From contig CAYGLK010000001.1 in assembly GCA_964350985.1 (NCBI GenBank), positions 158,636 to 222,635 of the forward strand: a stretch of DNA of 64,000 nt. Direction: 5' to 3'. Source of the DNA: an uncultured Candidatus Saccharibacteria bacterium (lineage in GTDB: Bacteria; Patescibacteriota; Minisyncoccia; Phycocordibacterales; UBA918). Below the pieces are notes generated by a model, which saw only the letters and a list, made by a program, of their open reading frames with translations, had not been told where the DNA came from and did no database searches. Positions 13,389-37,365 of this stretch are shown here, in pieces. The stretch's first letter is position 1. The number at the start of each line of letters is the position of its first letter. Both the position numbers and the translations under genes were made by a program.

Positions 13389-14090
13389 TTCAGCTATTGC
13401 CTCAGGGTTGGAAAACATAGCCTCATGATCTGCATCAATTGTCATTATTTCTGCAGCGTTTGGTAAAAGAGAAATTATTTCATCAAAGGTTTCTTTTTGT
13501 AATGAGATATCATTTTGACACTTTACATAAATAACTGGAACTTTTGTTTGCTGGAAAGAATCAAGTACAACTATCTCCTCGTAGGGTTTAATTGGTTGAG
13601 GTTCAAGTTTAGATAAGAAGTCATTTAATTCATCAGAGTCCGGGCTGCTGTTAAATAAACCTTGTCTTATTTTCTCTATGTTTGGAGGAATTGATTTGTC
13701 AGCACGATTGGACGCAATTTGTCTGTATTTTTCTTGAACTTCGGAAGGAAGGAGTGAGGAAAAGGCTTTATTTTTTAAGATAACCGAAGTGAGAAAAAAC
13801 GCCTTGTTTATCTTTTCTGGTATTTTTTCAATTACTTTAGAAATAGTTATTCCACCTAGGCTATGACTTACTAATACAATATCATTCAATTTATTTGAAT
13901 TTATATAATCTATTACATAGTTTATATAATCATCTATACAAACATCTTCTTTTTTAATTGAGTCATTCAATCCGTTTCCTGGTAAATCCAGAGTATGGCA
14001 AATGAATTTGTCATTTGGTATCAAATTTATTACCTCATTCCAACACCATCCAGCATGATACGCACCGTGGACGAAAAGTATATTTTGCAT
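13368..14090 (-). CDS. alpha/beta-hydrolase, SABP2/methylesterase-like
   Basis: N-terminus ILFVHGAYHAGWCW is the SABP2/MES-family signature. GxSxG nucleophile elbow VSHSLGG. Catalytic His region DADHEAMFSNPE. The 3' end overlaps the 12450..13388 gene convergently by about 20 nt. Confidence 0.75.
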   Translation of the reverse strand: MQNILFVHGAYHAGWCWNEVINLIPNDKFICHTLDLPGNGLNDSIKKEDVCIDDYINYVIDYINSNKLNDIVLVSHSLGGITISKVIEKIPEKINKAFFLTSVILKNKAFSSLLPSEVQEKYRQIASNRADKSIPPNIEKIRQGLFNSSPDSDELNDFLSKLEPQPIKPYEEIVVLDSFQQTKVPVIYVKCQNDISLQKETFDEIISLLPNAAEIMTIDADHEAMFSNPEAIAELLLRQT

Positions 14091-19798: not shown

Positions 19799-21724
19799 TT
19801 AGACAATTCTGCCGGGGTCAATTTCAATTCGGATATACGGCGGTAATTTTTTTAATTTTGTCATAAAGTCCTCCGCTTCTTTTCCACTACGATTTATTTT
19901 AAAGAGAGCGTGTCTGAGGATTTTATCGTCACTAGAATTAGGGTTGTTGTAGTAACTGGCTGTGTGCGGGCTAGCGATAGTCTCAATAACTTTCTCAGTG
20001 TTAGTGACCACCTCTTTATTTCCGGTCCAGCTGAGTAAGACAAAAGTAACCACTGGAGGGTACTGAAGGGCTTCTCTTAGTTGAATCTCCTCATTATAAA
20101 AAGCTTCTAAGCTACCATGTTTAGCGCTCTCTAAAACGGAGTCTGGTTTGATTCTGGTTTGAACCATCACTTCTTGGTTAGATAACTCGCGGAGTTCTAA
20201 AAGTAGTTTAAAGATATTCTCATCAGCTCGCCAAGTCGGATTTGACCTAGCTGCATCAAGAGAGACTATGGTACTTAGATCAACTCCGTTTAAAGCAAGG
20301 TAGGGAAGACACATCTGCGTTCCCACTAAAATAGAACTACGATTTTCATAAAATTCGGCTATTATTTTTTCAGCCCGTTTACGGGTGGAACCCATAATGT
20401 GATCTAGGAGGAATATCTTACTATTTGGGAATTGAGTAACAGCTTCGTCGTAAACGTGTTGAATACCAATGCCACGTGCTCGCAACCTCCAAGAGCCACA
20501 AGAAGGACAAGTATCAGCAGCGCGAATTTTCTTACCAGAAGTACCAGAAACAAACCAACGCTCCTCCTCACCTGACTTGTTGATTGTTTTAACTAGAGAG
20601 TATGGTGTTTCGGAGTCAGGGCAACGAAAGATGTATCCACAGTCAATACAAGTAACTACCGGAGCGATACCCCTTCTGGCACCATAAATAAAGACACGTC
20701 CCTTACCTTCAAGAATACTATTAACCCGTGCTGTCAGTTCCTTTGAAAATAAGACAAAAGGTTTTTCTGGGGTGGATTTATCTTTTTGTTCAATAATGGT
20801 TAAGGGAGAAGAAAAAGCAATTCTTTTAGTTTCGCTGTTGAAAGTGTTGTAAGTTTCCATTCGCCTGCGGTACTCGTCTTCTGTTCTAGGTAAAACATCA
20901 CCAAGAAGAATACTGCGACCAGTGATGGCAGCGTAAGTAGTGAGGGCGGTACGGTGATCAAAGTAGGGACGTAACTGACTACGGTAGGTTTCGTTGGCTG
21001 ATTTTTCAACTACCACAGATATGAGATCAACTCGATCAAGATAAGCATGAGATGGGGTAGTGATGATAAGACGAGCTAGGGTTGTATCTTCAAAGGCGGC
21101 GTAGGCTTTTTCTTGCTCGTGTTTACTAGCAGAAGGTGAGAAGACCACAACTCTGTCTTCGATACCTTGAGCAAGATGTTTTTTGGCGTATGCGATATGA
21201 GCTGAAGTGGGGACAATAAACATCACTGATCCACGTCTAGCTAAGACACTACGGATATGGCTCCGATATGAAATATAACGATCAGCAATAGCTGCTGTTA
21301 GTAGTTGAGGCACTGTATCCTCGTCATGAACGAGAGAAGAAACAATTGGATACTGATATTGGCCAGTGCGAACGTCAGGTGGAAGTAGTTGATACAAAAT
21401 AGCACCGATTGAGCTAGGATATATTTTTGTCAGTTTTTCAGCAGTTAACTGAATATTTTTTGGGACAACTGACTCTGGTGTTTGTTCTGGTAGTTTACGA
21501 AGTGTAAAAGAAGCTGTTTTAAGTGAACTTTTACTTTCACTAACCGGCTTTACTTCAGTCACAACAGCTCGGTGAGTTTTTCCGCGGATGGGTATGTTGA
21601 GAAAAGTACCTATCTGGTACTCCACCTTACTGTAATACGACAGCGAGTCGATTTTTGTGCCGCGAATTAGGGGAATTACCTGAATAACAAACATGTGAAG
21701 GTCATTGTAACAGACTTCCGCCAA
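19799..21724 (-). CDS. priA: primosomal protein N' (PriA)-like, with non-canonical helicase motifs
   Basis: The N-terminal 3'-DNA-binding-domain-like region and the Cys4 zinc region (CIDCGY..CPDSE...CPSCGSW) are typical of PriA. The expected Walker A (GxxGxGKT) and DExH are not seen: the aligned segments read ...RGSVMFIVPTSAHIAYAKK... and VVVEKSANETY. The gene order is the conserved priA-def-fmt. Confidence 0.65.
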   Translation of the reverse strand: MAEVCYNDLHMFVIQVIPLIRGTKIDSLSYYSKVEYQIGTFLNIPIRGKTHRAVVTEVKPVSESKSSLKTASFTLRKLPEQTPESVVPKNIQLTAEKLTKIYPSSIGAILYQLLPPDVRTGQYQYPIVSSLVHDEDTVPQLLTAAIADRYISYRSHIRSVLARRGSVMFIVPTSAHIAYAKKHLAQGIEDRVVVFSPSASKHEQEKAYAAFEDTTLARLIITTPSHAYLDRVDLISVVVEKSANETYRSQLRPYFDHRTALTTYAAITGRSILLGDVLPRTEDEYRRRMETYNTFNSETKRIAFSSPLTIIEQKDKSTPEKPFVLFSKELTARVNSILEGKGRVFIYGARRGIAPVVTCIDCGYIFRCPDSETPYSLVKTINKSGEEERWFVSGTSGKKIRAADTCPSCGSWRLRARGIGIQHVYDEAVTQFPNSKIFLLDHIMGSTRKRAEKIIAEFYENRSSILVGTQMCLPYLALNGVDLSTIVSLDAARSNPTWRADENIFKLLLELRELSNQEVMVQTRIKPDSVLESAKHGSLEAFYNEEIQLREALQYPPVVTFVLLSWTGNKEVVTNTEKVIETIASPHTASYYNNPNSSDDKILRHALFKINRSGKEAEDFMTKLKKLPPYIRIEIDPGRIV

Positions 21725-21760: not shown

Positions 21761-23260
21761 CTAAACTTCGTCCAAGTAAGACAGTTTGGCGCCGATAGAT
21801 GATAGACGTTCAACTAAGTTCTCGTATCCGCGTTTGATGCTGTAGATGTTGCGTAAGACACTATGTCCTTCAGCTCCAAGCATGGCTACTAGAAGAATAG
21901 TGGCTGGCCGTAGGGCAGGTGGGCAGATCAACTCTGTAGACTTTAGTTTTGTTGGTCCAGTTATATAGATACGGTGCGGGTCAGCCAAAGCGGTGTCAGC
22001 TCCAAGTTTTTCAAGTTCGGTAAAGTAGATAGCTCTTTTTTCATACATCCAATCATGAATTAGAGTTTGTCCTTCAGCTTGTGTGGCGATAGCTGCAAAG
22101 AAAGGAAGGTTGTCTGCATTTAGTCCTGGGTAGGGTCTAGAGTGAATTTTTTCTGGAGAAGCAGTGAGCTTGCTGTTTTTTATTTTAAGGTCCACTAGTT
22201 TAGTTACACCGTTGTGTGAGAAGTAAACTTTTGACTTTGTGTATTCGAGTCCCATTTTTTCTAACACTAGTAATTCCAGTTCCAGAAACTCTATCGGGCA
22301 GCGGGTGATAGTTAAGTTTGATTTGGTGACAATGGCTGCTGCAATAAAAAACATACTATCGGTTGGGTCTTCAGCTAAGTTGTATTCTATCGGGGTGTTG
22401 ATTTCAGCTATACCGGTAACTGTCAGTGTAGTAGTACCAATTCCTTCGATTTTTACTCCTAGTTTTTGTAAGAAAATACAAATCTCTTGCACCATGTAGT
22501 TGGCTGAGGCGTATTTGATTATGGTTGTGGTTGGTGTTTTCGCTGCGGCAAAAAGAGCATTTTCAGTTACTGTGTCACCAGACTCATAAAGAATGATCTC
22601 ACTAGGAGTTGCTGGTACTTTAGTAACGTTATAAGAGGTTGCAGTGGTTTCAATATTGACGCCAAAGTTCTCCAGGGCGTAGAAATGAGGACGTACTGTT
22701 CGACTGCCAAGTTTGCAGCCACCAGTTTGAGGAAGACTGAATTTATCCATTAAGTGGATTAGTGGTCCGATAAACATCACAATACTTCGAGTTTTTTTGG
22801 CAGCTTCGATATCAATTTTCTTTAGGTCGATTTTCTTTGGTGGAGTAATCTTGAGATTGTTTCCTTGCCATTCTATTTTTACACCAATACTTTCAAGTAC
22901 TTCGATAATACGATGAACTTCTTCAATCCGAGGCATGTGATGCAAGGTGGTGGAGCTTCTGTTTAGAAGGCTGGCACAAAGGAGTCCAACAGCACCGTTT
23001 TTTGAAGTGTTTGTTTCGATGGTTCCAGAGAGTTTTTTACCACCATCAATTTGAATATTATAGCCACCAGGTGAGAGGCTGATAATGTTTTGTCCCAGAG
23101 CCTGACTGACCTTGGATAAGGTGTCAGTACTGATGTTTTGTTTACCTGACTCTAGTCTGGCGATAGCGCTTTGAGTAGTTTTCATTTTTTTGGCTAAAGC
23201 TGCTTGGGTGATACCCTTACTTTCTCTAACCTTAGTAATACGTTGTCCGATATTTTTCAT
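21761..23260 (-). CDS. murA: UDP-N-acetylglucosamine 1-carboxyvinyltransferase (MurA) with an N-terminal XRE-type helix-turn-helix domain
   Basis: The HTH reads MKNIGQRITKVRESKGITQAALAKKMKTTQSAIARLESGKQNISTDTLSKVSQALG. MurA motifs are LSGTIETNTSKNGAVGLLCASLL and the active-site region LPQTGGCKLGSRTVRPH. The track ORF starts 87 nt further upstream; MKNIGQ at 23260 is the more likely start. Confidence 0.8.
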   Translation of the reverse strand: MKNIGQRITKVRESKGITQAALAKKMKTTQSAIARLESGKQNISTDTLSKVSQALGQNIISLSPGGYNIQIDGGKKLSGTIETNTSKNGAVGLLCASLLNRSSTTLHHMPRIEEVHRIIEVLESIGVKIEWQGNNLKITPPKKIDLKKIDIEAAKKTRSIVMFIGPLIHLMDKFSLPQTGGCKLGSRTVRPHFYALENFGVNIETTATSYNVTKVPATPSEIILYESGDTVTENALFAAAKTPTTTIIKYASANYMVQEICIFLQKLGVKIEGIGTTTLTVTGIAEINTPIEYNLAEDPTDSMFFIAAAIVTKSNLTITRCPIEFLELELLVLEKMGLEYTKSKVYFSHNGVTKLVDLKIKNSKLTASPEKIHSRPYPGLNADNLPFFAAIATQAEGQTLIHDWMYEKRAIYFTELEKLGADTALADPHRIYITGPTKLKSTELICPPALRPATILLVAMLGAEGHSVLRNIYSIKRGYENLVERLSSIGAKLSYLDEV

Positions 23261-23273
23261 AATAGAGTTGATT

Positions 23274-23289
23274 ATAGCATATATGCTAT
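23274..23289. promoter_or_regulatory. Perfect 16-bp palindrome ATAGCATATATGCTAT 14 nt upstream of the HTH-MurA start, in the divergent murA/mreB region; a candidate operator
   Basis: Seen directly; it is its own reverse complement. Confidence 0.35.
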
Positions 23290-23355
23290 AAGTTGTAACT
23301 TTGTTATGTGGAGGAAAAACGTAGTATAGTATAGGACCTAATAACATGATAAATA

Positions 23356-24372
23356 ATGTTCTGGAATAACTTAACTCCTAAAATCGGTATTGATCTTGGT
23401 ACAACTAGTATCTTGGTTTTTGTTCCTGGACAAGGGATTATTCTAAACGAACCATCGGTGGTAGCAGTGTCAGATGATAATCAAGTTTTGGCAGTAGGAG
23501 TCGAGGCTAAAAGAATGATTGGTAGAACCCCTGATAGCATTAGAGCGTATCGTCCTATGAAAGATGGAGTGATTGCTGACTACAGAGTAACTGAAGTGAT
23601 GTTGCGTTATTTTATCAGGAAGGCTCTAAGCCGCTACAACCTCTTTAAGCCAGACGTGATGGTCTCTGTACCAGCGGGGGTTACTTCTACTGAAAGAAGA
23701 GCGGTTGTAGAGGCGACCATAAAAGCTGGAGCCAGAAATGCTTATGTAGTTAAAGAGCCGATCTTGGCGGCTATTGGTGCAGGAGTACCTATATATGAAC
23801 CTCAAGGTCATATGATCGTCGACATTGGGGGAGGAACAATAGACGTGGCAGTAATTTCTCTTGGAGGAATAGTAGCCGCTAACTCCGTGAAGTGCGCTGG
23901 AAATAGAATAGACGCTGCGATTATCGACTACGTCAAAAAAACTCGTAATCTGTCGATTGGAGATAAGACCGCTGAAGAAATTAAAATTAAAATCGGTTCA
24001 GCTTTACCTTTGGAAGAAGAGTTAATGATGGAGGTCAAAGGGAGAGATGTTTTGTCGGGCCTACCGCGTACAGCTGAAGTTCGTACTAATGAAGTGGTGC
24101 GAGCAATTGGGCGTGAATTACGTGAGATGATTAAAGCGATCAAAGACGTGTTCCAAAACACACCACCTGAGCTTGCTGCCGATATTATTGACGGCGGAAT
24201 TATTATGACTGGAGGAACTTCACAATTACGCAATTTTCCTGAGTTAGTAAAAAGGCGTTCGGGGGTTAAAGCTTTCTTGGCCGATCAGGCACTATTTTGT
24301 GTAGCGACTGGTACTGGAATCGCACTGGAACACTTAGATACATATAAACGAACTGTTTTAGCAAAGAGATAA
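23356..24372 (+). CDS. mreB: rod shape-determining protein MreB (actin homolog)
   Basis: IGIDLGTTSILVF..., DIGGGTIDVAV and other actin-fold motifs. Confidence 0.9.
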   Translation: MFWNNLTPKIGIDLGTTSILVFVPGQGIILNEPSVVAVSDDNQVLAVGVEAKRMIGRTPDSIRAYRPMKDGVIADYRVTEVMLRYFIRKALSRYNLFKPDVMVSVPAGVTSTERRAVVEATIKAGARNAYVVKEPILAAIGAGVPIYEPQGHMIVDIGGGTIDVAVISLGGIVAANSVKCAGNRIDAAIIDYVKKTRNLSIGDKTAEEIKIKIGSALPLEEELMMEVKGRDVLSGLPRTAEVRTNEVVRAIGRELREMIKAIKDVFQNTPPELAADIIDGGIIMTGGTSQLRNFPELVKRRSGVKAFLADQALFCVATGTGIALEHLDTYKRTVLAKR

Positions 24373-24465
24373 ATAAAAGAATCGCAGCCTTTGGCTGCGA
24401 TTCTTTTATTAAGACAGGGGATTTCAGGCAGACATATATTACTCCCTCCTGCTACACTAGAGTGA

Positions 24466-27228
24466 ATGATAGAAGGAACACCACAACAGTTTTCTTCGGC
24501 AGAAGAAGAGTTGAAATATTTGCGCAATAAAGTAGCTGAGCGTGAGCGCGAGTTATTAATGCGCAATCCAGAAAGTGATCATTCTGATACCGAAACTATT
24601 GCCAGACAAGAGATCAGAGAATATTCCAGCTTTACTCCTAAGATGATTTTGGATCAAGAACACGCTTTAGATGAGCCGACTCTAGCCGCGTCAGTAGAAC
24701 AAATAGGAATCTCACATGATCCGGCTCAGGATATTATTGATTTGGCTGGAGAAAAAGGAATTAGGAATGCGTTGTCCGTCTTAGATAAAGTTGATAATCC
24801 TTATGTGATTGATGAAGTCCATCGTCGGTTAGTTGAGTTAATAAAAGGAGGAGCGCAAATACAAGATCTTAAAGAAGGAGTTGAACCTTGGCATATACTT
24901 CACATGACTCTATACGAAGTGACTTTGCCCGAAATCACTGGAGAAGGTGGTAAAGAATATCAGCTGTCTGAGCTTGTCGGTATGATGGAGCAACTTTTCG
25001 CTGGACTTAGAACTATCGGTGCAAATCAATCGGCAAATCATTTTGTGATTGAGTTGGCTGTGGCAGACAATAGTGACGATATCGTTTTTTATGTAGCCGT
25101 ACCAACCAAGTTCGTCTCACTGTTTGAAAAACAAACTCTTTCTCTTTTTCCTCATGCAGAGTTAGCAATCCAAGCCCATGACTACAATATCTTTGTCGAT
25201 CAGGGGACTACCTATGTGGCTGAAGCAAAACTCAAAAAGAATCCTATCTACCCACTTCGAACCGCGGATGGTTTTTCAGCTGATCCACTAGCAGTTATTT
25301 TAAATGCTTTCTCAAAGATTGAACGAGAAGGTGGTGGAGCAGCAGTGCAGTTTGTTATCCGTCATCCACAAAAGAAATATCGTAAGACCTACGAAGAGGT
25401 AATAAAAAATATTCAAAAAGGAATGAAAGCTAGTGAAGCGATATCTCGTAGTTCTATTGGAGGTGAGATTTTAGGATCAGTGTCAGACTTCCTGTTTAAG
25501 AAAGAGAAAAAAGATGAAGTTGATACGAGTTCAACAGATACTGACAAAATTGAAATATTCAATCGCAAAATAAAGACAGATTTAGTGGAGACAAATATTA
25601 GAATAGCTGTCTCAGCTCAGAATCCTGATCGAGCTGAACAAATTTTAACTGAGATTGAATCAACTTTTAATCAGTTTGATTTGGTAGAAGGTAATGCTTT
25701 TTCTTTTAAGCGAGCAAAGGGTAGTGCTCTAAAGCAGGCCCAGAAAGCCTTTTCTTTCCGTGAATTTAATAGGGGTGTCAATATACCTTTGTCTTTAAGT
25801 GAATTAGCGACGCTAATTCACTTCCCAAGCAATGGTATTAGTGGATCACCGCAGTTTAAACAGTCTCAGTCCAATACAGCCGCCGCACCAAACGACATGC
25901 CAACTAGCGGTACCATCTTGGGTATCAACAAACATAGAAATTCTGAGAAAGAGATTTATATGACCGAGCTTGATCGAATGCGTCACTTGTATGTCATTGG
26001 TCAAACAGGTACTGGTAAGTCAAAGTTTTTAACTAACTTGATCATTCAAGATATTCAAGCAGGAAACGGAGTTTGTATGATTGACCCTCACGGGACAGAT
26101 ATTGAAGATGTGCTGGGTGCGATACCGCCAGAGCGAGAAAAAGATGTAATTTACTTTGATCCTTCAAATCTAGACCACGTTGTTGGGTTAAACATGCTCG
26201 AGTATGACGAAAGTAAGCCAGAGCAGAAAACTTTTGTAGTCAATGAACTCTTCTCAATTTTTCAAAAACTTTATGGAGCCAATCCAGAAAGTATGGGGCC
26301 GATGTTTGAGCAGTATTTCCGTAACGCTACTTTACTCGTGATGGAAGACCCGTCTACTGGTAGTACTTTGATGGATATCTCCAGAGTAATGGTAGACGCT
26401 TCGTTTAGAAGAATGAAATTAGAAAAAGCTACTAACCCAGTAGTGGTTCAGTTTTGGAAAGAAATTGCGACTAAGGCGGGTGGGGAAGCAGCACTAGAAA
26501 ATATCGTTCCTTATATTGTGTCCAAGTTTGATGTATTTACTGCCAATGACTACATGCGTCCAATTATTGGACAGCAAAAATCCGCTTTCAACTTCAGGCA
26601 AGTAATGGATGAGCGAAAGATCTTGCTTGTAAATCTATCTAAGGGACGACTAGGAGAGATAAATGCCAATCTAATCGGAATGATTTTTGTAGGGAAGATT
26701 TTGATGGCAGCATTATCACGAGTAGATGATCCAACTAAAAGCTTTCCGCCTTTTTACTTACATATAGATGAGTTTCAAAACGTTTCTACTCCAGCTATCG
26801 CTTCGATTTTGTCTGAGGCCCGTAAGTACAAACTAAGTCTTACTGTAGCGCACCAGTTTATTGCGCAGCTAGATGAAAATATTCGTGATGCAGTTTTTGG
26901 TAACGTTGGTTCGATGGCTGCTTTCCGAGTTGGTTCGGAAGACGCTCAGTTCTTGGAGCAACAATTTTCTCCTGTCTTTGAAGCGAAGGATTTGATGAAT
27001 GTACCAAACTACAATGCCTTAGTCCGCATGTTGACAAATGGTACTCCAACCAAACCTTTCTCAATGGCCACCTTAGCTCCAATTGTATCTGACCCAGCAA
27101 GACTAGCTGAATTAATCAGACAAAGTGCTGAACGGTATGGACGACCACGAGCGGAAGTAGAAGCAGAGATTGCTGAGCGCTATGTAAAAAAGCCAATGAT
27201 GCCCCGAGACCCAAGTGCTATGATGTAG
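24466..27228 (+). CDS. HerA/FtsK-superfamily (DUF87/AAA_10, TraD/VirB4-like) P-loop NTPase with a ~500-aa N-terminal extension
   Basis: Walker A plus a HerA-like segment: LYVIGQTGTGKSKFLTNLIIQDIQAGNGVCMIDPHG. Walker B region: FYLHIDEFQNV...LTVAHQ. No TM segments. Confidence 0.6.
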   Translation: MIEGTPQQFSSAEEELKYLRNKVAERERELLMRNPESDHSDTETIARQEIREYSSFTPKMILDQEHALDEPTLAASVEQIGISHDPAQDIIDLAGEKGIRNALSVLDKVDNPYVIDEVHRRLVELIKGGAQIQDLKEGVEPWHILHMTLYEVTLPEITGEGGKEYQLSELVGMMEQLFAGLRTIGANQSANHFVIELAVADNSDDIVFYVAVPTKFVSLFEKQTLSLFPHAELAIQAHDYNIFVDQGTTYVAEAKLKKNPIYPLRTADGFSADPLAVILNAFSKIEREGGGAAVQFVIRHPQKKYRKTYEEVIKNIQKGMKASEAISRSSIGGEILGSVSDFLFKKEKKDEVDTSSTDTDKIEIFNRKIKTDLVETNIRIAVSAQNPDRAEQILTEIESTFNQFDLVEGNAFSFKRAKGSALKQAQKAFSFREFNRGVNIPLSLSELATLIHFPSNGISGSPQFKQSQSNTAAAPNDMPTSGTILGINKHRNSEKEIYMTELDRMRHLYVIGQTGTGKSKFLTNLIIQDIQAGNGVCMIDPHGTDIEDVLGAIPPEREKDVIYFDPSNLDHVVGLNMLEYDESKPEQKTFVVNELFSIFQKLYGANPESMGPMFEQYFRNATLLVMEDPSTGSTLMDISRVMVDASFRRMKLEKATNPVVVQFWKEIATKAGGEAALENIVPYIVSKFDVFTANDYMRPIIGQQKSAFNFRQVMDERKILLVNLSKGRLGEINANLIGMIFVGKILMAALSRVDDPTKSFPPFYLHIDEFQNVSTPAIASILSEARKYKLSLTVAHQFIAQLDENIRDAVFGNVGSMAAFRVGSEDAQFLEQQFSPVFEAKDLMNVPNYNALVRMLTNGTPTKPFSMATLAPIVSDPARLAELIRQSAERYGRPRAEVEAEIAERYVKKPMMPRDPSAMM

Positions 27229-27236
27229 ATAATAAT

Positions 27237-29885
27237 ATGGAGAATGAACCCAAAATAATAAATTCCAAACCAGAAAAAATAAATCGTCGTGAATTCGTAG
27301 GGGATTTGTTGATAGATTTTTCTGAGTATGACGATGACGGACCTGCTTTTCGTAGTTTTGATTCCATAAAAGGTGTCGTTGAAGCAGAGCTCGAAAATAC
27401 AGGATTAGACCCAGATAAGATAGCTGTTTTCAAAAAAGAAGTCTTAGATCGTACTGGTTACCAGGTCAGACAATTTGGCGACAAGCTTGGTTATGAAGAA
27501 TTAAGGCAACTTTATAAAAGTCTGGCTCAGAATCTAGTCCAATTAATTGAACAAAATGATGAGACTGAGAAAAAGGATGAAATTAATAATATACCAGATA
27601 ACCTACCAGGTGCAGATGAAGTAGAAATCACTTTACCTAAAAAATATGAAGTATCTCAGGAATACAAAGACTGGCGAGAGAATCTAATTAGTGCTAAGAG
27701 AGCATATTCAGAAACAGAAAGTAAATATAATCTAGCTTTACAAAAGTATTACCATAACTCTGTTATTTCTGATCTGAGAAGAATTGGCTCAGGAGTCAAG
27801 GATATATTTGGACTGAAAACAAAATTATCTCCTGAATTAGATAATCTCAAAAAAGAATTAATTTTACACAGACAGCAATATGCAGAATCCCTAAGTGCTG
27901 TTTTGCAGGCTCGTGGACTTAAAAATTTTGATTACGAAAGTGAAAAAACAAAAATACATTTTGTTGAAAAATTTATCATAAAACCAAATAAGAAGCTGTT
28001 GGAATATCAAGAGAACAATCAGTCAAAAGAAAATAGGTCAATAACAGCTAATATTTTAGAAAGGTTTGCGGGAGGTTTTAATAAAAACAAACAATTGATT
28101 CGATATGGTGCGATGACGATCGGAATCACTGCGGCAGGCGTGGCTGCTGCTGCCGTTGCTCCAACAGCAGCGGTAGGGGCTTTCATAGGAGGAGCTTCTT
28201 TTAAGGCTTCTAAAATATTCGCTTCTTTATATCTTGGAGCTGAGGTAGGTGTTAAAACTCATAACGCTATGGGTAAATTTGTCACTAAAGCAGAGAATGA
28301 GTTTGGTAATACAGAAAAGAAGATTAAGTCTGACTTCAGTCTTGATAATCTTAGTCGTGATGCAGAAATTTATGAAAAAACCAAAAAAGATATTAGAGTC
28401 GCACAAAAGCGGCAAACTGCGGCTACGGTTTTTTCTGGTGTGGCAGCTGGTGGCGCAACATATGGTTTGGGTAATGTACTTGAGTCGCAATTTTCAGGTC
28501 CAGAAGTAAGTGAGAAAATTACTTGGGAAACTGATACAGATTTCGAAGCAGAAACAAATATGATTGAGACTCAACAGACACTGCCTGGAGTCCAGGTCAC
28601 ATTAGACAACAGCTCTTTTGGTGAAAGTAACTATCTAATCTCTAGCGAAATAGGATTTAACGGTTCAGAACTACCGGAAGATGCTAAAGAACAGCTGGAT
28701 GATTTGATTAAAAAAGAAGTTACAAAAGCTCATATAGACAACCATCACTTTAATATAGATAGACTTGAAGGTGTTTTACCAGGAGAATTAGAAAGAAAGT
28801 TCGGTAAAATGGATTGGTGGCCAGAAGGTGGAGTTGTTGTTGATTTAGAGGCAAGGGAAGTAAGTAACCCGTTAGAAAATAATGCTGAAGAGACACCTCC
28901 AGTGCAAGCTGATTTACACGAGCCCGAACCAGAAACAGAACCTGAACCTGAACCTGAACCTGAAGCAGTATCTGAGCCTGAAAGTGCTGATATTCATGTA
29001 GTAGAAGAACTAGATACTTTATCTAAAATTGTAAATGATCATTTCAGGACCCAGTTAGATCAATTACCTAAAGAAGATTACAATAAAGTGCTTTATGAGT
29101 TATTGGATCGGGTAAAAGAAGACTCAGATTTGCGAGAATCTTTAGGGATGAGAAGCACTAACATAAATGAAATTTTTGTTGGTGAGGAATTAAATTTGTC
29201 TAGCTTAGATGCTGAATTTGCGGATATTATTTCTGAAGACAATCAGGTTGGAGCTCCAGAGGTTGAAACTGTTGAAAGTCCAAAAGTCGATGCAAATAAA
29301 TTTTACACCGGGGATATAGAACTTGAATCGACGGCTGCGCTCGAAGTAGATGATTCAAGGGTGTCAGATTCTGCTGAGACCATACCTTCTAGTGTAGAAA
29401 ATGAAGCAAAGTATACGCAGACAAACTATGAAGTTGAGCGATTAGTTCCACCTACCGGCAACTTTCCAATATCTGGTCAGTATTTAAATGATCCTGCATA
29501 CGTTGAATATAGGCAACAAATATTCCCAGACGAGAAATCTTTCCTTAAAGCAGTAGATCAATCTGCAAAGCTAATAGATAATTCTACCAGTGGTTTCCTG
29601 GATCGGTTTTTTGGAGAAAGTTATAAGAGTCCTTACGAAGTAATGTCATCTATGACTTTGTCTGAACTAGAAGAGCTAGAAGAAGCTCCGCGAGATCTTG
29701 CTCGAGGTTTTTGTGAGCAAAATAACCTCAAGTATGAATCTTACCGTAATTGGCAAGATCAGATTCAGCAAATGAAAGATCTTCCGCATCAGGACAGTAC
29801 GACCTTAAAAGATTTATTCTCTCGCCAGGTTGTACAAAATGCTGCGGAAAATTATGATCCTTTAAATAGAACAATAACTACATAA
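27237..29885 (+). CDS. large (882 aa) hypothetical protein with central hydrophobic segments and a highly acidic PE-rich region
   Basis: A/G-rich TM-like segments are GAMTIGITAAGVAAAAVAPTAAVGAFIGG and AATVFSGVAAGGATYGLG. The acidic tract is PEPETEPEPEPEPEAVSEPE. There is a 9-nt gap after the ATPase gene. Confidence 0.5.
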   Translation: MENEPKIINSKPEKINRREFVGDLLIDFSEYDDDGPAFRSFDSIKGVVEAELENTGLDPDKIAVFKKEVLDRTGYQVRQFGDKLGYEELRQLYKSLAQNLVQLIEQNDETEKKDEINNIPDNLPGADEVEITLPKKYEVSQEYKDWRENLISAKRAYSETESKYNLALQKYYHNSVISDLRRIGSGVKDIFGLKTKLSPELDNLKKELILHRQQYAESLSAVLQARGLKNFDYESEKTKIHFVEKFIIKPNKKLLEYQENNQSKENRSITANILERFAGGFNKNKQLIRYGAMTIGITAAGVAAAAVAPTAAVGAFIGGASFKASKIFASLYLGAEVGVKTHNAMGKFVTKAENEFGNTEKKIKSDFSLDNLSRDAEIYEKTKKDIRVAQKRQTAATVFSGVAAGGATYGLGNVLESQFSGPEVSEKITWETDTDFEAETNMIETQQTLPGVQVTLDNSSFGESNYLISSEIGFNGSELPEDAKEQLDDLIKKEVTKAHIDNHHFNIDRLEGVLPGELERKFGKMDWWPEGGVVVDLEAREVSNPLENNAEETPPVQADLHEPEPETEPEPEPEPEAVSEPESADIHVVEELDTLSKIVNDHFRTQLDQLPKEDYNKVLYELLDRVKEDSDLRESLGMRSTNINEIFVGEELNLSSLDAEFADIISEDNQVGAPEVETVESPKVDANKFYTGDIELESTAALEVDDSRVSDSAETIPSSVENEAKYTQTNYEVERLVPPTGNFPISGQYLNDPAYVEYRQQIFPDEKSFLKAVDQSAKLIDNSTSGFLDRFFGESYKSPYEVMSSMTLSELEELEEAPRDLARGFCEQNNLKYESYRNWQDQIQQMKDLPHQDSTTLKDLFSRQVVQNAAENYDPLNRTITT
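28926..28961 (+). repeat. Hexanucleotide tandem repeat, (GAACCT)x4 preceded by two degenerate units, inside the 882-aa gene (PE dipeptide repeat)
   Basis: gaaccagaaacagaacctgaacctgaacctgaacctgaa seen directly. Confidence 0.7.
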
Positions 29886-29888
29886 TGT

Positions 29889-30188
29889 ATGATAGACGAA
29901 ACTAATGACAACCTTCCGCCAATAATGCCAGATCTCTCTGAAGATGAACAAAACGCTTTCTTAGAAGAGGTTGGTACTTTGATTTTTAAAAGCACAGTGA
30001 TGCGTTATCTTTCGGTGTTATCTCCAGAGCAAGCGCAAGTTTTTGAAACTTTTGTAAAAGTGCATTCTGAGTCAGATAATTTTATTGAAGAACTGTCTAA
30101 ACAGTATCCAGAATTTAAAATACTACTAGACGAAGAGATGGAAGCGTTCAATAATGAACTTGGAGAAAATAATACACAGAAACTTTAA
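29889..30188 (+). CDS. small acidic hypothetical protein (99 aa)
   Basis: Track ORF, 3 nt after the previous gene. Confidence 0.4.
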   Translation: MIDETNDNLPPIMPDLSEDEQNAFLEEVGTLIFKSTVMRYLSVLSPEQAQVFETFVKVHSESDNFIEELSKQYPEFKILLDEEMEAFNNELGENNTQKL

Positions 30189-30225
30189 TGCTTAGCAGAG
30201 AGCGGGGTGTTATGATGTAGAAGTT

Positions 30226-31761
30226 ATGGACTCAAATAGTTCTTTAGGTTTTGATCTTAATTCTCAAAAAGGAGTTGCAGTTCTTTTGGCATCTTTACGT
30301 GCTAGTGATTTGACTGGTGCTCAAAAAAACGAGATTCGTGATTTAATTTTTTCATATACAAATGGTGGAGGAGACGTTTCAATAAAAATTGCTTTAGAAC
30401 AAAAACTACGCGCACACAATATTAAACCTGTTAGTCCAGTTGGTGGCGCTCAAACTTCAGCTGCAAAAATAGCACCTACACCGGTGTTGCCGTTTGGTAG
30501 TTCAAGGCCGTCTCCAGTCTTTAAGGTGCCCGTTTTTTCAAATGCTAATTCCAAACCATCACCAGCGCCAACTGAGCAAAAAACAGCACCAGAAATTAAA
30601 AAAGCTGAACCAGCTCCAGTAGTAGAGAAGAAAAATGAAGAAGTAAAAATACCAACTCCAACTCCAACCCCGCAGTCAAGGCCAGAACCTAAACCAGCGG
30701 CTACAAAAGTTGAGGTAAAGCCAGTAGTAAATGGCAGTAGTGTTGCTAATTCTAATGACTATATAGATAGAATTCGAGAAATAAAAAGTGCTGTTAACAG
30801 CAAGGTTGGTAATCCGGTAAATCTAGTAGATATAGACAACGAAGTTGGTCGTGAATACATGAATGCTCTACTTGAAGCGATGAAGCGTTTGAGCGGAGGA
30901 GCGTCTGGACAAATGGAGGCAGCTATGAAGAGACTAGAAACAGCTTTTTCTGCGGTTGAAAAAGCTGTAGAAGGACACAAACCAAAGGCTGACGTACCTC
31001 AAGTAGAACCAGCTCGTCCAATAACTCCAGCACCTGCACCTACCCACACTCAAGCGCCAGCGCCAAAACCAACAGCTCCAGAAGTAGATACATCACCGGT
31101 CTTGGGAAGTAATTTTGCAAGTGCTCCAAAACCTCCATCAATACCCACACCCACAGCTCCGGCTTCAAAACCACTTCCACCTCCTCCACCTCCTCCACAA
31201 ACCCAACCAAAGACAGAGCAAAAAAAAACTGATAGCGAATCAAACCCTTGGCAAGCAGCTAGAGAAACAGTTGCTGCAGCAGCAGTCGCTACACCACCTC
31301 CAGTAAAACCTGTAGCACAAGCACAAAGCCAAGCTCAAACTTATCAGGCTAAGTCTATCTTGGGGGAAGACCGTCTTGCTACACCAGCAGACCTTCCACT
31401 TAAACATGCTTCTGATACTAGTGATTCAACAGACCCTCTTTATAGTAATGAAGTAAATACTGGCCTTGATCAACTACTCTCTGACTGGAGTCTGTTTAAG
31501 AAAAGTGGGTTGTTTGGAACTGGCCCAAAAGGGAAAGACCACCCATTGTTTGTTAAGATTGCTGGACTCCAAATACCGCTACTATTAGCAGGACGCTTTG
31601 AAGGATCAACTCAAGAAATAAAACAGAGTATTACAGACTATATGAATGGTTGGCGCTATGAACAGGGAATTATCTACGAAAAAGGCGAGACTTTTGAGCG
31701 TTATCTAAGACGAGTCATTAAACTGATTCTAGATTTACAAAAAAAGCGCATACCTTCATAA
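30226..31761 (+). CDS. proline-rich hypothetical protein (511 aa) with a conserved-looking C-terminal ~130-aa domain
   Basis: PTPTPTPQSRPEPKP and PPPPPPPQTQP tracts. Last gene of the ATPase operon, immediately before the holB-like gene. Confidence 0.5.
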   Translation: MDSNSSLGFDLNSQKGVAVLLASLRASDLTGAQKNEIRDLIFSYTNGGGDVSIKIALEQKLRAHNIKPVSPVGGAQTSAAKIAPTPVLPFGSSRPSPVFKVPVFSNANSKPSPAPTEQKTAPEIKKAEPAPVVEKKNEEVKIPTPTPTPQSRPEPKPAATKVEVKPVVNGSSVANSNDYIDRIREIKSAVNSKVGNPVNLVDIDNEVGREYMNALLEAMKRLSGGASGQMEAAMKRLETAFSAVEKAVEGHKPKADVPQVEPARPITPAPAPTHTQAPAPKPTAPEVDTSPVLGSNFASAPKPPSIPTPTAPASKPLPPPPPPPQTQPKTEQKKTDSESNPWQAARETVAAAAVATPPPVKPVAQAQSQAQTYQAKSILGEDRLATPADLPLKHASDTSDSTDPLYSNEVNTGLDQLLSDWSLFKKSGLFGTGPKGKDHPLFVKIAGLQIPLLLAGRFEGSTQEIKQSITDYMNGWRYEQGIIYEKGETFERYLRRVIKLILDLQKKRIPS

Positions 31762-31765
31762 TAGG

Positions 31766-32386
31766 ATGATGTTAGATCATCATGCCTATCTATATCGACT
31801 CAAAGAAGTTGATATAACTAAAGTTACTCAAGCTGTAGAGAAATTTGAAATAAATGAAATCGAAAAGTTTGATCTAAGTAATTTTGGTATTGACGATTCA
31901 AGAGCGCTAGTAGAAACTGCTTACAAAAGACCAAATTCAGGAGAGAAAAAATTAATCATTGTCGCTTTAAAGAATATTACAGTTGAAGCACAGCAGGCTT
32001 TGCTTAAAATCCTCGAAGAGCCTCCAAAAACTGCCGTCTTTGTATTTTGTGTACCAGTAAGTTTATATCTTCTACCGACTCTTTTATCTCGTTTTTATAT
32101 AGATCAAGAGTTTGAATTTTTAGATCTAGAGAATGACCAACCTAACTTCTTAAGTTTTAAAACTCTCTCCAGAGCAGAAAGGATTACCGAAGTTACAGCC
32201 AGAATGACAGCTAAAGATACAGATTGGGTTGCTTCAATCAAGGCTGGTCTCATTAGTTACTTGTCTACTCAATCTTCCACAGACAAAGCTGATAATGGGG
32301 AAGTGTTGCTTTGGATCGCTAAGCATCTTCAGACCAGAGGCGCTTCAAATAAGCATCTTTTGGAAGAACTGGCTTTGACACTTTAA
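31766..32386 (+). CDS. holB: DNA polymerase III delta-prime-like clamp-loader subunit (degenerate, no P-loop)
   Basis: KLIIVALKNITVEAQQALLKILEEPPKTAVFVFCV matches the clamp-loader signature (NALLKtLEEPP). Confidence 0.55.
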   Translation: MMLDHHAYLYRLKEVDITKVTQAVEKFEINEIEKFDLSNFGIDDSRALVETAYKRPNSGEKKLIIVALKNITVEAQQALLKILEEPPKTAVFVFCVPVSLYLLPTLLSRFYIDQEFEFLDLENDQPNFLSFKTLSRAERITEVTARMTAKDTDWVASIKAGLISYLSTQSSTDKADNGEVLLWIAKHLQTRGASNKHLLEELALTL

Positions 32387-35411: not shown

Positions 35412-36485
35412 ATGAGTCGCATCTCCAAATACTTAAATAAAATACTAGCCTCAGTCTCTACTGATATTGCTATTGACCTAGGGACTGCAAATACTTTGGT
35501 TTATGTAAAAGGAAAAGGGATTGTTTTAAATGAACCTACTATTGTAGCGATCAATAAAAAAACCGGACAATTAGTAGCAGTTGGCCATGAAGCGAAGACA
35601 ATGCAAGGAAGAACCCCGCAGCATATTGAAGTAGTGCGCCCACTAGTAGACGGAGTGATTTCTGACTTTGAAGTTACAGAAGAAATGCTTGGTTATTTAA
35701 TTAATAAAGTTCATAGCGATATCCGAACTTTTATTGCACCAAGAATTCTAATTGGTGTACCTTCTGGTATTACAAATGTAGAAATGCGTGCCGCTAGAGA
35801 TGCTGCCAAGAATGCTGGAGCACGCGAAGTACTTTTGATTGAAGAACCAATGGCAGCTGCTATTGGAGCAAAGCTTCCTATTGGTAAGGCAGTCGGAAGC
35901 ATGATTATTGATATTGGTGGAGGCACTACTGATATTGCGGTAATTTCTCTAAGTGGACTGGTGGTTTCTAAGAACTTGCGTGTCGCTGGGGATCATCTAA
36001 GTGCTTCAATAACTTCATATGTCCGAGATCAGTTTAAGATTTATGTTGGTGAAAAGACGGCCGAGGAAGCGAAAATAAACTTAGCCAATGTTAGAGAGAC
36101 TAATGAAAGTGGAGAAATGGTTGTTCGTGGTAGAGACGTTATGACAGGACTTCCACGAGAAGTAATTATTACCGCTAGAGATATTCATGACGCTATCGAA
36201 AATCAAGTTGATATTATTGTTGAATCTGTGAAGTTGGTCTTAGAAAAAACACCACCAGAAGTTCTGGCTGATATAATGCAGAGAGGTATTCATCTCTCTG
36301 GTGGAGGAGCTCTTATTCCAGGCCTAGCTTCTTTCTTGGAAGAAGCTCTTGAAGTACCAGTGATCGTTGTGCCTGACCCACTGCGAGCAGTGATCCGAGG
36401 GGCTGGTATCGTAATTGAAAACCTAGAATTATATGAACAAGTACTCATCGACAACGAAGGCGAACTATCGCCACAACTCAACTAA
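35412..36485 (+). CDS. mreB: rod shape-determining protein MreB (second paralog)
   Basis: IAIDLGTANTLVYVKGKGIVLNEPTIVAI, DIGGGTTDIAV. Confidence 0.9.
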   Translation: MSRISKYLNKILASVSTDIAIDLGTANTLVYVKGKGIVLNEPTIVAINKKTGQLVAVGHEAKTMQGRTPQHIEVVRPLVDGVISDFEVTEEMLGYLINKVHSDIRTFIAPRILIGVPSGITNVEMRAARDAAKNAGAREVLLIEEPMAAAIGAKLPIGKAVGSMIIDIGGGTTDIAVISLSGLVVSKNLRVAGDHLSASITSYVRDQFKIYVGEKTAEEAKINLANVRETNESGEMVVRGRDVMTGLPREVIITARDIHDAIENQVDIIVESVKLVLEKTPPEVLADIMQRGIHLSGGGALIPGLASFLEEALEVPVIVVPDPLRAVIRGAGIVIENLELYEQVLIDNEGELSPQLN

Positions 36486-37365
36486 GACCAAGTCAAAATC
36501 AAGGTGGTTAATTATATTGATTGGCTTGGTTATTCTGGGGCTTATTTTCCCGTGGTTTTTCCCTAAGATCTCAGCTGTAATTCTTTATCCCTTTCACGCT
36601 ACTTCTACATGGATAAAGACATCAGAAGGAGTATTTCCATTGTATTTAAGATCAAGAGGTGAGTTACTTCAGGAGGTTGAGGATATGCGAGTGCAGTTAT
36701 CGACTGGGGTTGGTACACAGCAATCAATTCAACGTCTGCTGGAAGAAAATATGAGCCTACGTTCTTTACTTAAGATGGGTAAGGATGAGGAGCGTCTTGT
36801 AGCTCGTGTATTGCAGAGACCAAATATCTTACCTTATGATTTATTACAGATTGATCAAGGTAGTCAAAATGGAGTTGTATTAGGAGCACCAGTTTATAGT
36901 GGAGTCGATTCACTAATCGGTATTGTGGTTAGTGTGGACACAACTTATTCTTTCGTTGATTTGTTTACTTCTCCTGGTTTTATTTCTACGGCCTATATCT
37001 TTGGCCCTGATGTTTTTGCACCTTTAGAGGGTGTTGGTGGTGGTGTAGCTAGGGTAAAACTGCCTCAAGGTGTACCGATTGAAGTTGGTCAGTTGGTTAT
37101 CTTACCTGGAGTCTCAAGTGCTATTTATGGTGAAATTATTGAAGTTCAAAATGAACCAACTCAACCAGAACAGTATGGATACATCACACCTCCGTTGGCG
37201 ATCAATAATTTACTATATGTATCAGTTGGAAGACAGTCAGTGACTGAAACCGATAATGTGATTATTGATGATGAGGTTAGAAAATCTTTGCGCCAAGAAA
37301 CTATTATTACAAACGCTTCAACAACCGCTGCAACGACAAGTACTACGACTGTACCTGAGAATTAA
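36433..37365 (+). CDS. mreC: rod shape-determining protein MreC
   Basis: N-terminal TM, a coiled-coil, a beta-domain motif (GAPVYSGVDSLIGIVVSV), and its position after mreB. The start may be downstream of the track start; the 5' end overlaps mreB. Confidence 0.65.
   Translation: MNKYSSTTKANYRHNSTKTKSKSRWLIILIGLVILGLIFPWFFPKISAVILYPFHATSTWIKTSEGVFPLYLRSRGELLQEVEDMRVQLSTGVGTQQSIQRLLEENMSLRSLLKMGKDEERLVARVLQRPNILPYDLLQIDQGSQNGVVLGAPVYSGVDSLIGIVVSVDTTYSFVDLFTSPGFISTAYIFGPDVFAPLEGVGGGVARVKLPQGVPIEVGQLVILPGVSSAIYGEIIEVQNEPTQPEQYGYITPPLAINNLLYVSVGRQSVTETDNVIIDDEVRKSLRQETIITNASTTAATTSTTTVPEN

Follow-up and report, generated by a model that had tools for sequence, protein, structure and literature searches.

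What does a motor ATPase do when it is encoded among housekeeping genes, beside none of the partners with which ATPases of its kind usually work? The question is raised by a run of four genes in an uncultured Candidatus Saccharibacteria bacterium (GTDB lineage Bacteria; Patescibacteriota; Minisyncoccia; Phycocordibacterales; UBA918). The genes lie within a 64,000-nucleotide stretch of DNA, hereafter the window (GenBank assembly GCA_964350985.1, contig CAYGLK010000001.1, positions 158,636 to 222,635), and all coordinates refer to the window. On the plus strand, they specify a 920-amino acid (aa) ATPase (24466–27228) and the products of three open reading frames (ORFs): ORF2 (27237–29885, 882 aa), ORF3 (29889–30188, 99 aa), and ORF4 (30226–31761, 511 aa). 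An earlier reading of this DNA, the original prediction, proposed an uncharacterized translocation or cell-surface apparatus composed of four close-set genes that run into a holB-like gene, and the ORFs lie exactly where that reading placed them. The answer we favor, with confidence that is evenly balanced, is that the ATPase is a VirB4/coupling-type motor exapted to a core function, and that it would be docked at the membrane via ORF2, where it would drive or gate export.

The assignment of the ATPase to the HerA/FtsK superfamily is borne out, and profile and fold searches narrow it to the TraD/VirD4/VirB4 branch. All of the ATPase motifs named in the original prediction are present in the RecA-type motor domain (aa 471–920, 25876–27228, plus strand, as are all features of the four genes): Walker A, GQTGTGKS (aa 512–519, 25999–26022); the IDPHG segment (aa 539–543, 26080–26094); and Walker B, HIDEFQ (aa 766–771, 26761–26778). 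Across aa 495–825, Pfam models DUF87 (29.3 bits), T4SS-DNA_transf (24.1 bits), and TraG-D_C (23.2 bits) score above their curated cut-offs. PF10412 is weak or sub-cut-off (17.8 versus 20.5 bits), NCBIfam yields weak TraD/VirD4 matches, and the best PDB sequence match is TrwB. FtsK_SpoIIIE (PF01580) falls below the Pfam cut-off (20.3 versus 24 bits) and covers only aa 494–527, around Walker A.

The N-terminal half had been regarded as unknown. In fact, the precomputed annotation of the identical protein and of all close homologs assigns it to Pfam DUF8128 (PF26449), and, used as a query, this half retrieves 845 clusters (50% identity) at E ≤ 1e-3. Its alpha/beta domain (aa 146–470, 24901–25875) is predicted to adopt the fold of the VirB4/TrwK N-terminal domain. 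Preceding this domain is a helical N-terminal extension (aa 1–145, 24466–24900), a feature of the long form of the protein (~910–930 aa) that is missing from ~790–840-aa relatives and from the plasmid and phage homologs. Specifically, a Foldseek search of the PDB with an AlphaFold2 model of the full-length ATPase (mean pLDDT, the predicted local distance difference test, of 82) returned R388 TrwK/VirB4 first (E 4e-14, ~900 columns), followed by HerA and TrwB. In the motor model, 361 of the 420 residues of TrwB can be aligned. The protein has no predicted transmembrane segment, and there is no hydrophobic stretch outside the ATPase core. Because the top match of the full-length model extends over ~900 columns, the ATPase, as modeled, is a soluble motor with VirB4 architecture, in which a DUF8128 half is joined to a DUF87/TraG-type motor.

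How widespread is this protein? A one-genome-per-species scan gave more than 599 pattern matches, 580 of which were confirmed, and we studied the best 80 loci, each read with up to 10 kb on either side and with mechanically called ORFs. The ATPase is encoded in at least 580 species-representative genomes and has hundreds of full-length homologs at 50–84% identity. All 80 best loci come from Paceibacteria/Parcubacteria-type metagenome-assembled genomes (MAGs), and they form two groups, whose sizes are those among these 80. Group A (33 loci, several labeled Kaiserbacteria; 58–79% identity to the window ATPase) shares the window's synteny: a minus-strand helix-turn-helix (HTH)-MurA-like gene, mreB, the ATPase gene, a variable region, holB, frr, rseP, and proS. 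Group B (47 loci, ~50% identity) carries labels that include Nomura-, Campbell-, Taylor-, and Zambryskibacteria, and its contexts include secY-adk-map-ATPase-ndk-RNase J-like and ATPase-FKBP-tgt-uvrB. The neighbors are always housekeeping genes, be they mreB/holB/frr/rseP, secY/adk/map/ndk, or FKBP/tgt/uvrB. Median identity to the window within group A is 66% for the ATPase, 65% for ProS, 63% for Frr, 56% for RseP, and 36% for HolB. Thus, with medians that match those of Frr and ProS, the ATPase in Paceibacteria is a vertically inherited chromosomal core gene under housekeeping-level constraint, neither a mobile gene nor a defense gene. Base composition in the region is unremarkable, and the GC content is that of the flanks.

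Neither the window nor the 80 loci contain a relaxase, a type IV secretion system (T4SS), a pilus, or a defense effector beside the ATPase, nor do they contain integrase or phage genes. The absence of the usual HerA/FtsK partners, pointed out in the original prediction, therefore extends to the related loci. A Pfam search of the ~46 window ORFs identified a single nuclease-family match, an Exo_endo_phos protein (9195–9980) encoded ~15 kb upstream. Two observations concern the loci themselves. Many TPA_asm MAGs (loci L005, L006, L014, L018, and others) are titled Saccharibacteria yet have a Paceibacteria-type ATPase and synteny; the titles are apparently generic, and we did not use them for taxonomy. 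Locus L056, whose ATPase is 51% identical to that of the window, nonetheless has group-A-like synteny, with a 456-aa polytopic membrane protein and a 1623-aa protein encoded between the ATPase and holB.

The origin of the ATPase lineage is suggested by its relatives on mobile elements. By tblastn, near full-length relatives at 21–28% identity occur in 56 phage records and in 333 plasmid records, with Bacillus, Streptomyces, Staphylococcus, haloarchaea, and Sulfolobus as plasmid hosts. A 24.7-kb plasmid of Bacillus subtilis MH-1 encodes one such relative, WP_121549396.1, an 886-aa DUF87 protein that, like the window ATPase, has no transmembrane segment. BLASTP aligns the two proteins at E 4e-35 and 22% identity over 743 aa, covering both halves. 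The plasmid gene lies immediately upstream of a Replic_Relax relaxase gene, followed by TcpC, TcpE, and a separate AAA_10 VirB4. A second relative, HVO_RS19425 of Haloferax volcanii pHV1, is annotated as a T4SS DNA-binding protein, and its gene adjoins that of a VirB4-like "transfer complex protein". Both relatives match DUF87 or TrwB_AAD_bind. In hhalign comparisons, the profile of the N-terminal half (DUF8128) aligns with WP_121549396.1 at 97% and with HVO_RS19425 at 91% probability, versus 0.2% and 0.1% for the VirB4-like proteins of the Bacillus plasmid and pHV1, respectively. Judged by sequence, the ATPase's closest relatives from outside Patescibacteria are DUF87 ATPases without transmembrane segments, which are encoded on conjugative plasmids and are distinct from those elements' own VirB4 proteins. 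They differ from the window ATPase in lying beside conjugation genes, whereas the window gene is chromosomal and has no such neighbors. The window ATPase, moreover, has the additional 145-aa helical extension and is far more conserved.

Given that the Bacillus and haloarchaeal relatives sit in conjugation-type modules, the ATPase lineage derives from T4SS ATPases and was not invented separately. The original prediction is borne out in part. We note that MOB-suite types the B. subtilis MH-1 plasmid as "non-mobilizable", yet the plasmid carries a compact conjugation-like module (L083 8833–19941) comprising the DUF87 coupling-type ATPase, the Replic_Relax relaxase, TcpC, TcpE, the AAA_10 VirB4, and a 784-aa "conjugal transfer protein". 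Among phages, PHROG 5156 matches aa 199–905 of the ATPase (E 3.7e-80), and near full-length relatives occur in SPO1-like Bacillus phages (SPO1 gp27.4, L085 5743–8463) and in phage G (gp156), at 21–25% identity by tblastn. The PHROG 5156 proteins, which include SPO1 gp27.4 and probably phage G gp156, lack the first ~195 aa, and they offer no functional hint for the ATPase.

To which known family, then, does the ATPase belong? It misses defining features of every one that we can name. With VirB4 (R388 TrwK; Thermoanaerobacter pseudethanolicus VirB4), it shares the VirB4-fold N-terminal domain and the C-terminal RecA-type motor. However, the VirB4 sequence families PF03135 (CagE_TrbE_VirB) and PF12846 (AAA_10) are not matched at E ≤ 0.1, a search of the PDB with the ATPase family profile returned no VirB4 at E ≤ 10, and the sequence profiles favor TraD/VirD4 instead. 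With the coupling proteins (TrwB, VirD4, TraD, DotL, and Cag-beta), it shares a TraG/VirD4-type nucleotide-binding domain with Walker A and B and, in the predicted model, an all-alpha insert within that domain (aa ~586–715, 26221–26610). Coupling proteins, however, possess an N-terminal transmembrane domain where the window ATPase has the VirB4-like domain, they are linked to relaxases or T4SSs, and they are typically not nearly so conserved. HerA has in common with the ATPase only the generic DUF87 central domain. Unlike HerA and DptH/DndH, the ATPase has no HAS-barrel and no nuclease, Sir2, or DUF4297 partner, and its distribution is that of a core gene. FtsK/SpoIIIE differs by virtue of the sub-threshold PF01580 score and the ATPase's want of a membrane anchor. 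Taken together, the ATPase falls in a distinct clade that has a VirB4-like fold and no transmembrane domain, and whose sequence and, on the Bacillus plasmid, gene position are coupling-type. Neither canonical VirB4 nor canonical VirD4 proteins group firmly with it, and in the loci inspected it is never found beside a T4SS.

If the ATPase has no anchor of its own, what could hold it at the membrane? The candidate is ORF2, an acidic protein (isoelectric point [pI] 4.6) with the transmembrane helices and repeat tract that had been described for it. Following the positive-inside rule, its N-terminal region (aa 1–286) is predicted to be cytoplasmic. Next come an Ala/Gly-rich hydrophobic hairpin (aa 290–339), a predicted Lys-rich cytoplasmic loop, and a third predicted transmembrane segment, likewise Ala/Gly-rich (aa 395–415). 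The acidic C-terminal half contains an EPEPE spacer, EPEPETEPEPEPEPE (aa 562–576, 28920–28964). With this arrangement, the N-terminus probably lies inside the cell and the acidic C-terminal half outside. Only the core (aa ~150–420; 27684–28496) is well conserved: a hidden Markov model (HMM) of the core matches in 13 group-A loci (E 1e-37 to 1e-91), and the length of the full protein ranges from 268 to 1847 aa. A search of a large protein database with the 271-aa core returned zero matches, the protein itself included, which indicates that the gene lies outside that collection or that a composition filter intervened. Our view of the distribution of ORF2 comes from the fetched loci.

ORF3 is also acidic (pI 4.05). 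Eight of 16 ORF3-family members match DUF5663 (PF18908; best E 1.6e-5), and the window ORF3 itself does not. For both ORF3 and ORF4, neither a signal peptide nor a transmembrane segment is predicted, so the "cell-surface" label suits at most the C-terminal part of ORF2 and does not apply to the other two. ORF2, ORF3, and ORF4 are unrelated to one another by hhalign. Searches of Pfam, NCBIfam, PADLOC, PHROGs, and PDB profiles yielded nothing beyond the partial match of the ORF3 family to DUF5663; in keeping with the original description, no enzymatic domain is recognizable in any of the three. Marginal matches to TonB (at the EPEPE tract), PspA, KMP-11, IcmW (E 0.075), and DUF5331 were set aside as compositional or chance.

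The case for a partnership between the ATPase and the ORF2–ORF3 pair stems from recurrence. Among the group-A loci, 22 include at least 7 kb downstream of the ATPase; 10 of these have the ORF2 core, and ORF3 accompanies it in all 10, in nine by HMM and in the tenth by tblastn. Within group A, ORF3 occurs only where the ORF2 core does; where short ORFs replace ORF2, no ORF3 follows them. In group B, an ORF3-like gene is found downstream of the ATPase in four loci (L051, L058, L067, and L078), where the synteny is different and FKBP comes next. A large acidic membrane ORF separates the two genes in three of these four loci; L051 has no long ORF call. When seven such group-B ORFs were aligned and compared with the ORF2 family, hhalign reported 94% probability (E 9.5e-8, aa 159–408). 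Compared singly with the ORF2 core, the L058 ORF scored 95% and the L078 ORF 54%. There was no hhalign signal to the core for large acidic ORFs upstream of the ATPase (L038, L057, and L069) or for short ORFs downstream of it (L012, L015, L016, and L020). That the adjacency recurs in two synteny contexts speaks for a functional link of ORF2 and ORF3 to the ATPase. Their absence from most loci suggests either a link that is dispensable or a pair encoded elsewhere in those genomes.

ORF4 tells a different story. It is a basic protein (pI 9.3) with 62 prolines, and the predicted linkers are present as PTPTPTP (aa 143–149) and PPPPPPP (aa 318–324). Three conserved modules (aa ~10–65, ~175–245, and ~400–505) are separated by hypervariable Pro-rich linkers, and there is no match in Pfam or the PDB. 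Of the 22 group-A loci that extend at least 7 kb downstream of the ATPase, 20 have ORF4; no locus of group B does. When metagenomes were scanned independently with ORF4 as the seed, holB came directly next in 71 of 71 loci, and the ATPase lay upstream in all seven loci that had enough upstream sequence. Since holB always directly follows ORF4, the link between ORF4 and the ATPase is inseparable from its link to holB. ORF4 is, then, a modular scaffold restricted to one subclade and tied to holB as tightly as to the ATPase. It follows that the four genes do not constitute one conserved cassette, as had been supposed: ORF2 and ORF3 are patchy, with the core and ORF3 found after the ATPase in ~45% of group A and ~13% of group B, and ORF4 is confined to group A. 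Locus L029, for example, has the ATPase, a 1404-aa ORF2, ORF3, and holB, but no ORF4. In locus L023, an additional 213-aa ORF (12754–13395) with only the N-terminal and middle modules, which looks like a partial ORF4 duplication, lies directly upstream of the full ORF4. We also considered whether the C-terminal module of ORF4 (GLFGTGPKGKDHPLF) is a degenerate P-loop or a missing delta' N-terminus, and rejected both: the Lys is not conserved, and the holB-like protein fits PRK08485, a model of a naturally short delta'.

How might an export motor be assembled from these parts? By analogy with VirB4 and TrwB, the ATPase could form a ring, a hexamer, on the cytoplasmic side of the membrane. Because it lacks an anchor, it would be recruited by a separate membrane protein, in this case through the cytoplasmic/juxtamembrane core of ORF2. 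ORF3 would serve as a small acidic adaptor or chaperone, or would itself be a substrate. The energy of ATP hydrolysis would be used to drive or gate the transfer of a protein or nucleic-acid substrate, either through a Patescibacteria T4SS encoded elsewhere in the genome or through a conduit based on ORF2. Such docking has precedents. VirB4 is anchored through VirB3 and VirB8, although ORF2, ORF3, and ORF4 match none of the VirB3, VirB6, and VirB8 families. Coupling proteins that lack a transmembrane domain and require a separate small membrane protein are a recognized subclass, exemplified by TraJ/TraI of pIP501; in these and in TraG–TraJ pairs, the principle is the one proposed here, namely, that a soluble or weakly anchored coupling ATPase is recruited by a neighboring membrane protein (PMC7434980). 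Exaptation, too, has been raised as a possibility for the VirD4-like genes of Patescibacteria, few of which lie near virB4 (PMC12102498). ORF2 differs from TraI/TraJ in that it is unrelated in sequence and, at ~880 aa, has large cytoplasmic and external regions, and its docking role is proposed by analogy.

Several points weigh against this proposal. The ATPase is extremely conserved, and ORF2 beside it evolves very fast (22–31% identity). Where at least 7 kb of sequence follows the ATPase, the ORF2–ORF3 pair is missing near it in 12 of 22 loci of group A and in 27 of 31 of group B. Of the five large ORFs from group B that were compared with the ORF2 core one at a time, three returned no hhalign signal. 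In structure, the C-terminal motor is about equally close to HerA and to DptH, which act on DNA in repair and defense. The window contains no T4SS gene, so coupling to a T4SS draws on literature about other genomes, and in Saccharibacteria the VirD4-like gene was reported to be non-essential, and the T4SS genes essential (PMC12102498). The link between the ATPase and ORF2, ORF3, and ORF4 comes from gene context, and we infer the hexamer, the substrate, and the ORF2 topology from sequence.

The same facts can be read in another way, one that we consider possible but doubtful: the ATPase is the dispersed coupling protein of a canonical Patescibacteria T4SS located elsewhere, and ORF2, ORF3, and ORF4 are lineage-specific fillers ahead of holB. 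In most loci the ATPase gene has neither ORF2 nor ORF3 beside it, and several show it isolated among housekeeping genes. The hypervariability of ORF2 in length and sequence points the same way, as does the tight bond between ORF4 and holB. The literature is also accommodating. Patescibacteria T4SSs are typically encoded near dnaA, and most clusters are without a relaxase; the Saccharibacteria T4SS cluster studied by transposon sequencing has no recognizable coupling protein (PMC12102498, PMC10633639). A 2025 census counted 5,713 VirD4-like genes in Patescibacteria, only 148 of them near virB4, and stated that exaptation "cannot be ruled out" (PMC12102498). The plasmid relative, too, occupies a coupling-protein position. 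What argues against fillers is that the ORF2-core/ORF3 pair follows the ATPase directly, with gaps of a few nucleotides, in two unrelated contexts, which makes chance insertion unlikely. And what argues against a dispersed coupling protein is that class-wide identity of 50–84% is atypical, as coupling proteins are usually very divergent (PMC7434980), and that these genomes are not known to encode a relaxase or any other conjugative substrate.

A bolder version of the membrane-docked motor would dispense with the T4SS altogether. We regard it as unlikely, but of interest, that the ATPase, an ORF2-type protein, and a DUF5663-type protein make up a minimal, T4SS-independent envelope-translocation machine of Paceibacteria that arose from conjugative VirB4/coupling ATPases. 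If so, such a machine could be essential to the host-dependent lifestyle of these bacteria, for example, by exporting or importing macromolecules at contacts with the host cell.

Could the ATPase instead be a housekeeping DNA translocase or helicase, akin to FtsK or HerA, that functions in segregation, replication restart, or repair? Its level of conservation would suit that role, as would neighbors that include holB, uvrB/uvrA, a PIF1 helicase, and ndk, and the invariable coupling of ORF4 to holB. Nonetheless, we judge the role to be quite improbable. The N-terminal domain has the VirB4 fold and no HerA HAS-barrel, the FtsK_SpoIIIE match does not extend beyond the surroundings of Walker A, and the partners NurA, Mre11, and Rad50 are absent from all loci scanned. 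The closest sequence relatives reside in conjugation modules. Because the neighbor genes vary between clades, they probably reflect generic core-genome synteny.

Anti-phage defense of the HerA/DUF87 type (Sir2–HerA, DUF4297–HerA, Dnd/Dpt, or the methylation-associated defense system MADS) is very improbable. The PADLOC model mad8 of MADS matches the motor (aa 500–859, E 2.6e-16), and HerA models match weakly; we take the mad8 match to reflect common ancestry of the ATPase domain only. Genes for defense tend to be variable, patchily distributed, and grouped in islands. The ATPase, in contrast, is slow to evolve, is encoded by no fewer than 580 species representatives, and has housekeeping synteny in a region of ordinary base composition. 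PADLOC matches are restricted to the motor, with no cognate effector: no Sir2, DUF4297, nuclease, or methylase partner is adjacent, and ORF2, ORF3, and ORF4 have no PADLOC match. Finally, that the ATPase is a remnant of an integrated conjugative or phage element is scarcely credible, its homologs on Bacillus, Streptomyces, Staphylococcus, haloarchaeal, and Sulfolobus plasmids and in SPO1-like phages and phage G notwithstanding, given that the window and the 80 loci hold no integrase, relaxase, T4SS, or phage gene, that the GC content equals that of the flanks, and that within-clade synteny and 50–84% identity indicate vertical inheritance predating diversification of the class.

Why does the motor matter? 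Patescibacteria account for a large part of bacterial diversity, and theirs is the T4SS first shown to be essential for the growth of its owner, with neither a recognizable coupling protein nor a relaxase in the Saccharibacteria cluster studied. One VirD4-like family can now be defined: it combines DUF8128 with DUF87, lacks a transmembrane domain, has a VirB4-like fold at its N-terminus, and shows class-wide conservation at housekeeping level. Its nearest relatives can be named as conjugative-plasmid ATPases of Firmicutes and Archaea that occupy the coupling position, and the ORF2 core and the DUF5663-like protein can be named as a candidate pair of membrane partners. The fold match would be the first structural assignment for DUF8128, and the pairing is the first genomic association for a DUF5663-like protein; our literature search found no paper on DUF8128 or DUF5663. 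The 2025 census of VirD4-like genes did not describe this architecture or these partners (PMC12102498). The components have their origin in T4SS ATPases; what is new is their chromosomal, class-wide, highly constrained deployment and the association with ORF2 and DUF5663. As a candidate for an uncharacterized translocation machine, the ATPase gene is real, though novel only in part. If the motor feeds a T4SS, it offers a way to that system's substrate, and if it works alone, it would represent a new minimal translocation system.

With respect to expression, the four ORFs are, by comparison with related loci, genuine genes and not chance ORFs, since the ATPase has hundreds of full-length homologs and ORF2, ORF3, and ORF4 each have syntenic homologs elsewhere. 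The short holB-like gene (31766–32386, plus strand) specifies a 206-aa DNA polymerase III delta' protein (PF13177 DNA_pol3_delta2, E 7e-13; NCBIfam PRK08485, E 7e-19); we present it as context and imply no membership in the system. The tight spacing that had been reported stands, and the reported gaps of 9, 4, and 38 nucleotides were each off by one: in the mechanical ORF listing, the gaps from the ATPase through ORF2, ORF3, and ORF4 to holB are 8, 3, 37, and 4 nucleotides. Transcription units were called from consensus scans. Between the mreB1 stop and the ATPase start lies a hairpin (24372–24410), a perfect palindrome with an 18-bp stem, AATAAAAGAATCGCAGCC-TTT-GGCTGCGATTCTTTTATT, in which a GC core is followed by TTTTATT on the plus strand; it looks like a bidirectional intrinsic terminator. 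A weak sigma-70-like promoter match, AAGACA-18-TATATT (24411–24440, plus strand), precedes the ATPase gene; the match is to the consensus alone, and such sites are no commoner in the region than in shuffled sequence. The scan found no terminator-like site on the plus strand from 24466 to ~33170. The ATPase gene probably heads a long transcript through ORF2, ORF3, ORF4, holB, and frr, and mreB is probably transcribed apart from it. We rejected MreB as an operon partner on account of the strong terminator hairpin between the genes and the restriction of the adjacency to group A.

The remaining window neighbors are consistent with the housekeeping setting and include def, fmt, two copies of mreB, mreC, PBP2, mraW, ftsI, a Mur ligase, dnaK, dnaJ, aminoacyl-tRNA synthetases, and scpA. 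Of the two MreB paralogs (23356–24372, mreB1; and 35412–36485), mreB1 stands by itself upstream of the ATPase, an adjacency found in 27 of 28 group-A loci, and the second is followed by MreC (36433–37365) and a PBP2-type transpeptidase (37622–39313). Upstream of mreB1, and divergent from it, is a minus-strand gene (21761–23347) for a MurA/EPSP-synthase-family protein with an N-terminal HTH_3 (Cro/C1-type) DNA-binding domain, an unusual fusion that is conserved throughout group A. A 641-aa protein with no Pfam match is encoded on the minus strand between def/fmt and the MurA-like gene (19799–21724), and 22 group-A loci have it at this position. Farther downstream, a class II (Asp/Lys/Asn-type) aminoacyl-tRNA synthetase (40125–42011) carries a C-terminal DUF2000 domain (E 2.8e-13), and a second tRNA-synt_2 enzyme is encoded without DUF2000 at 56392–57789.

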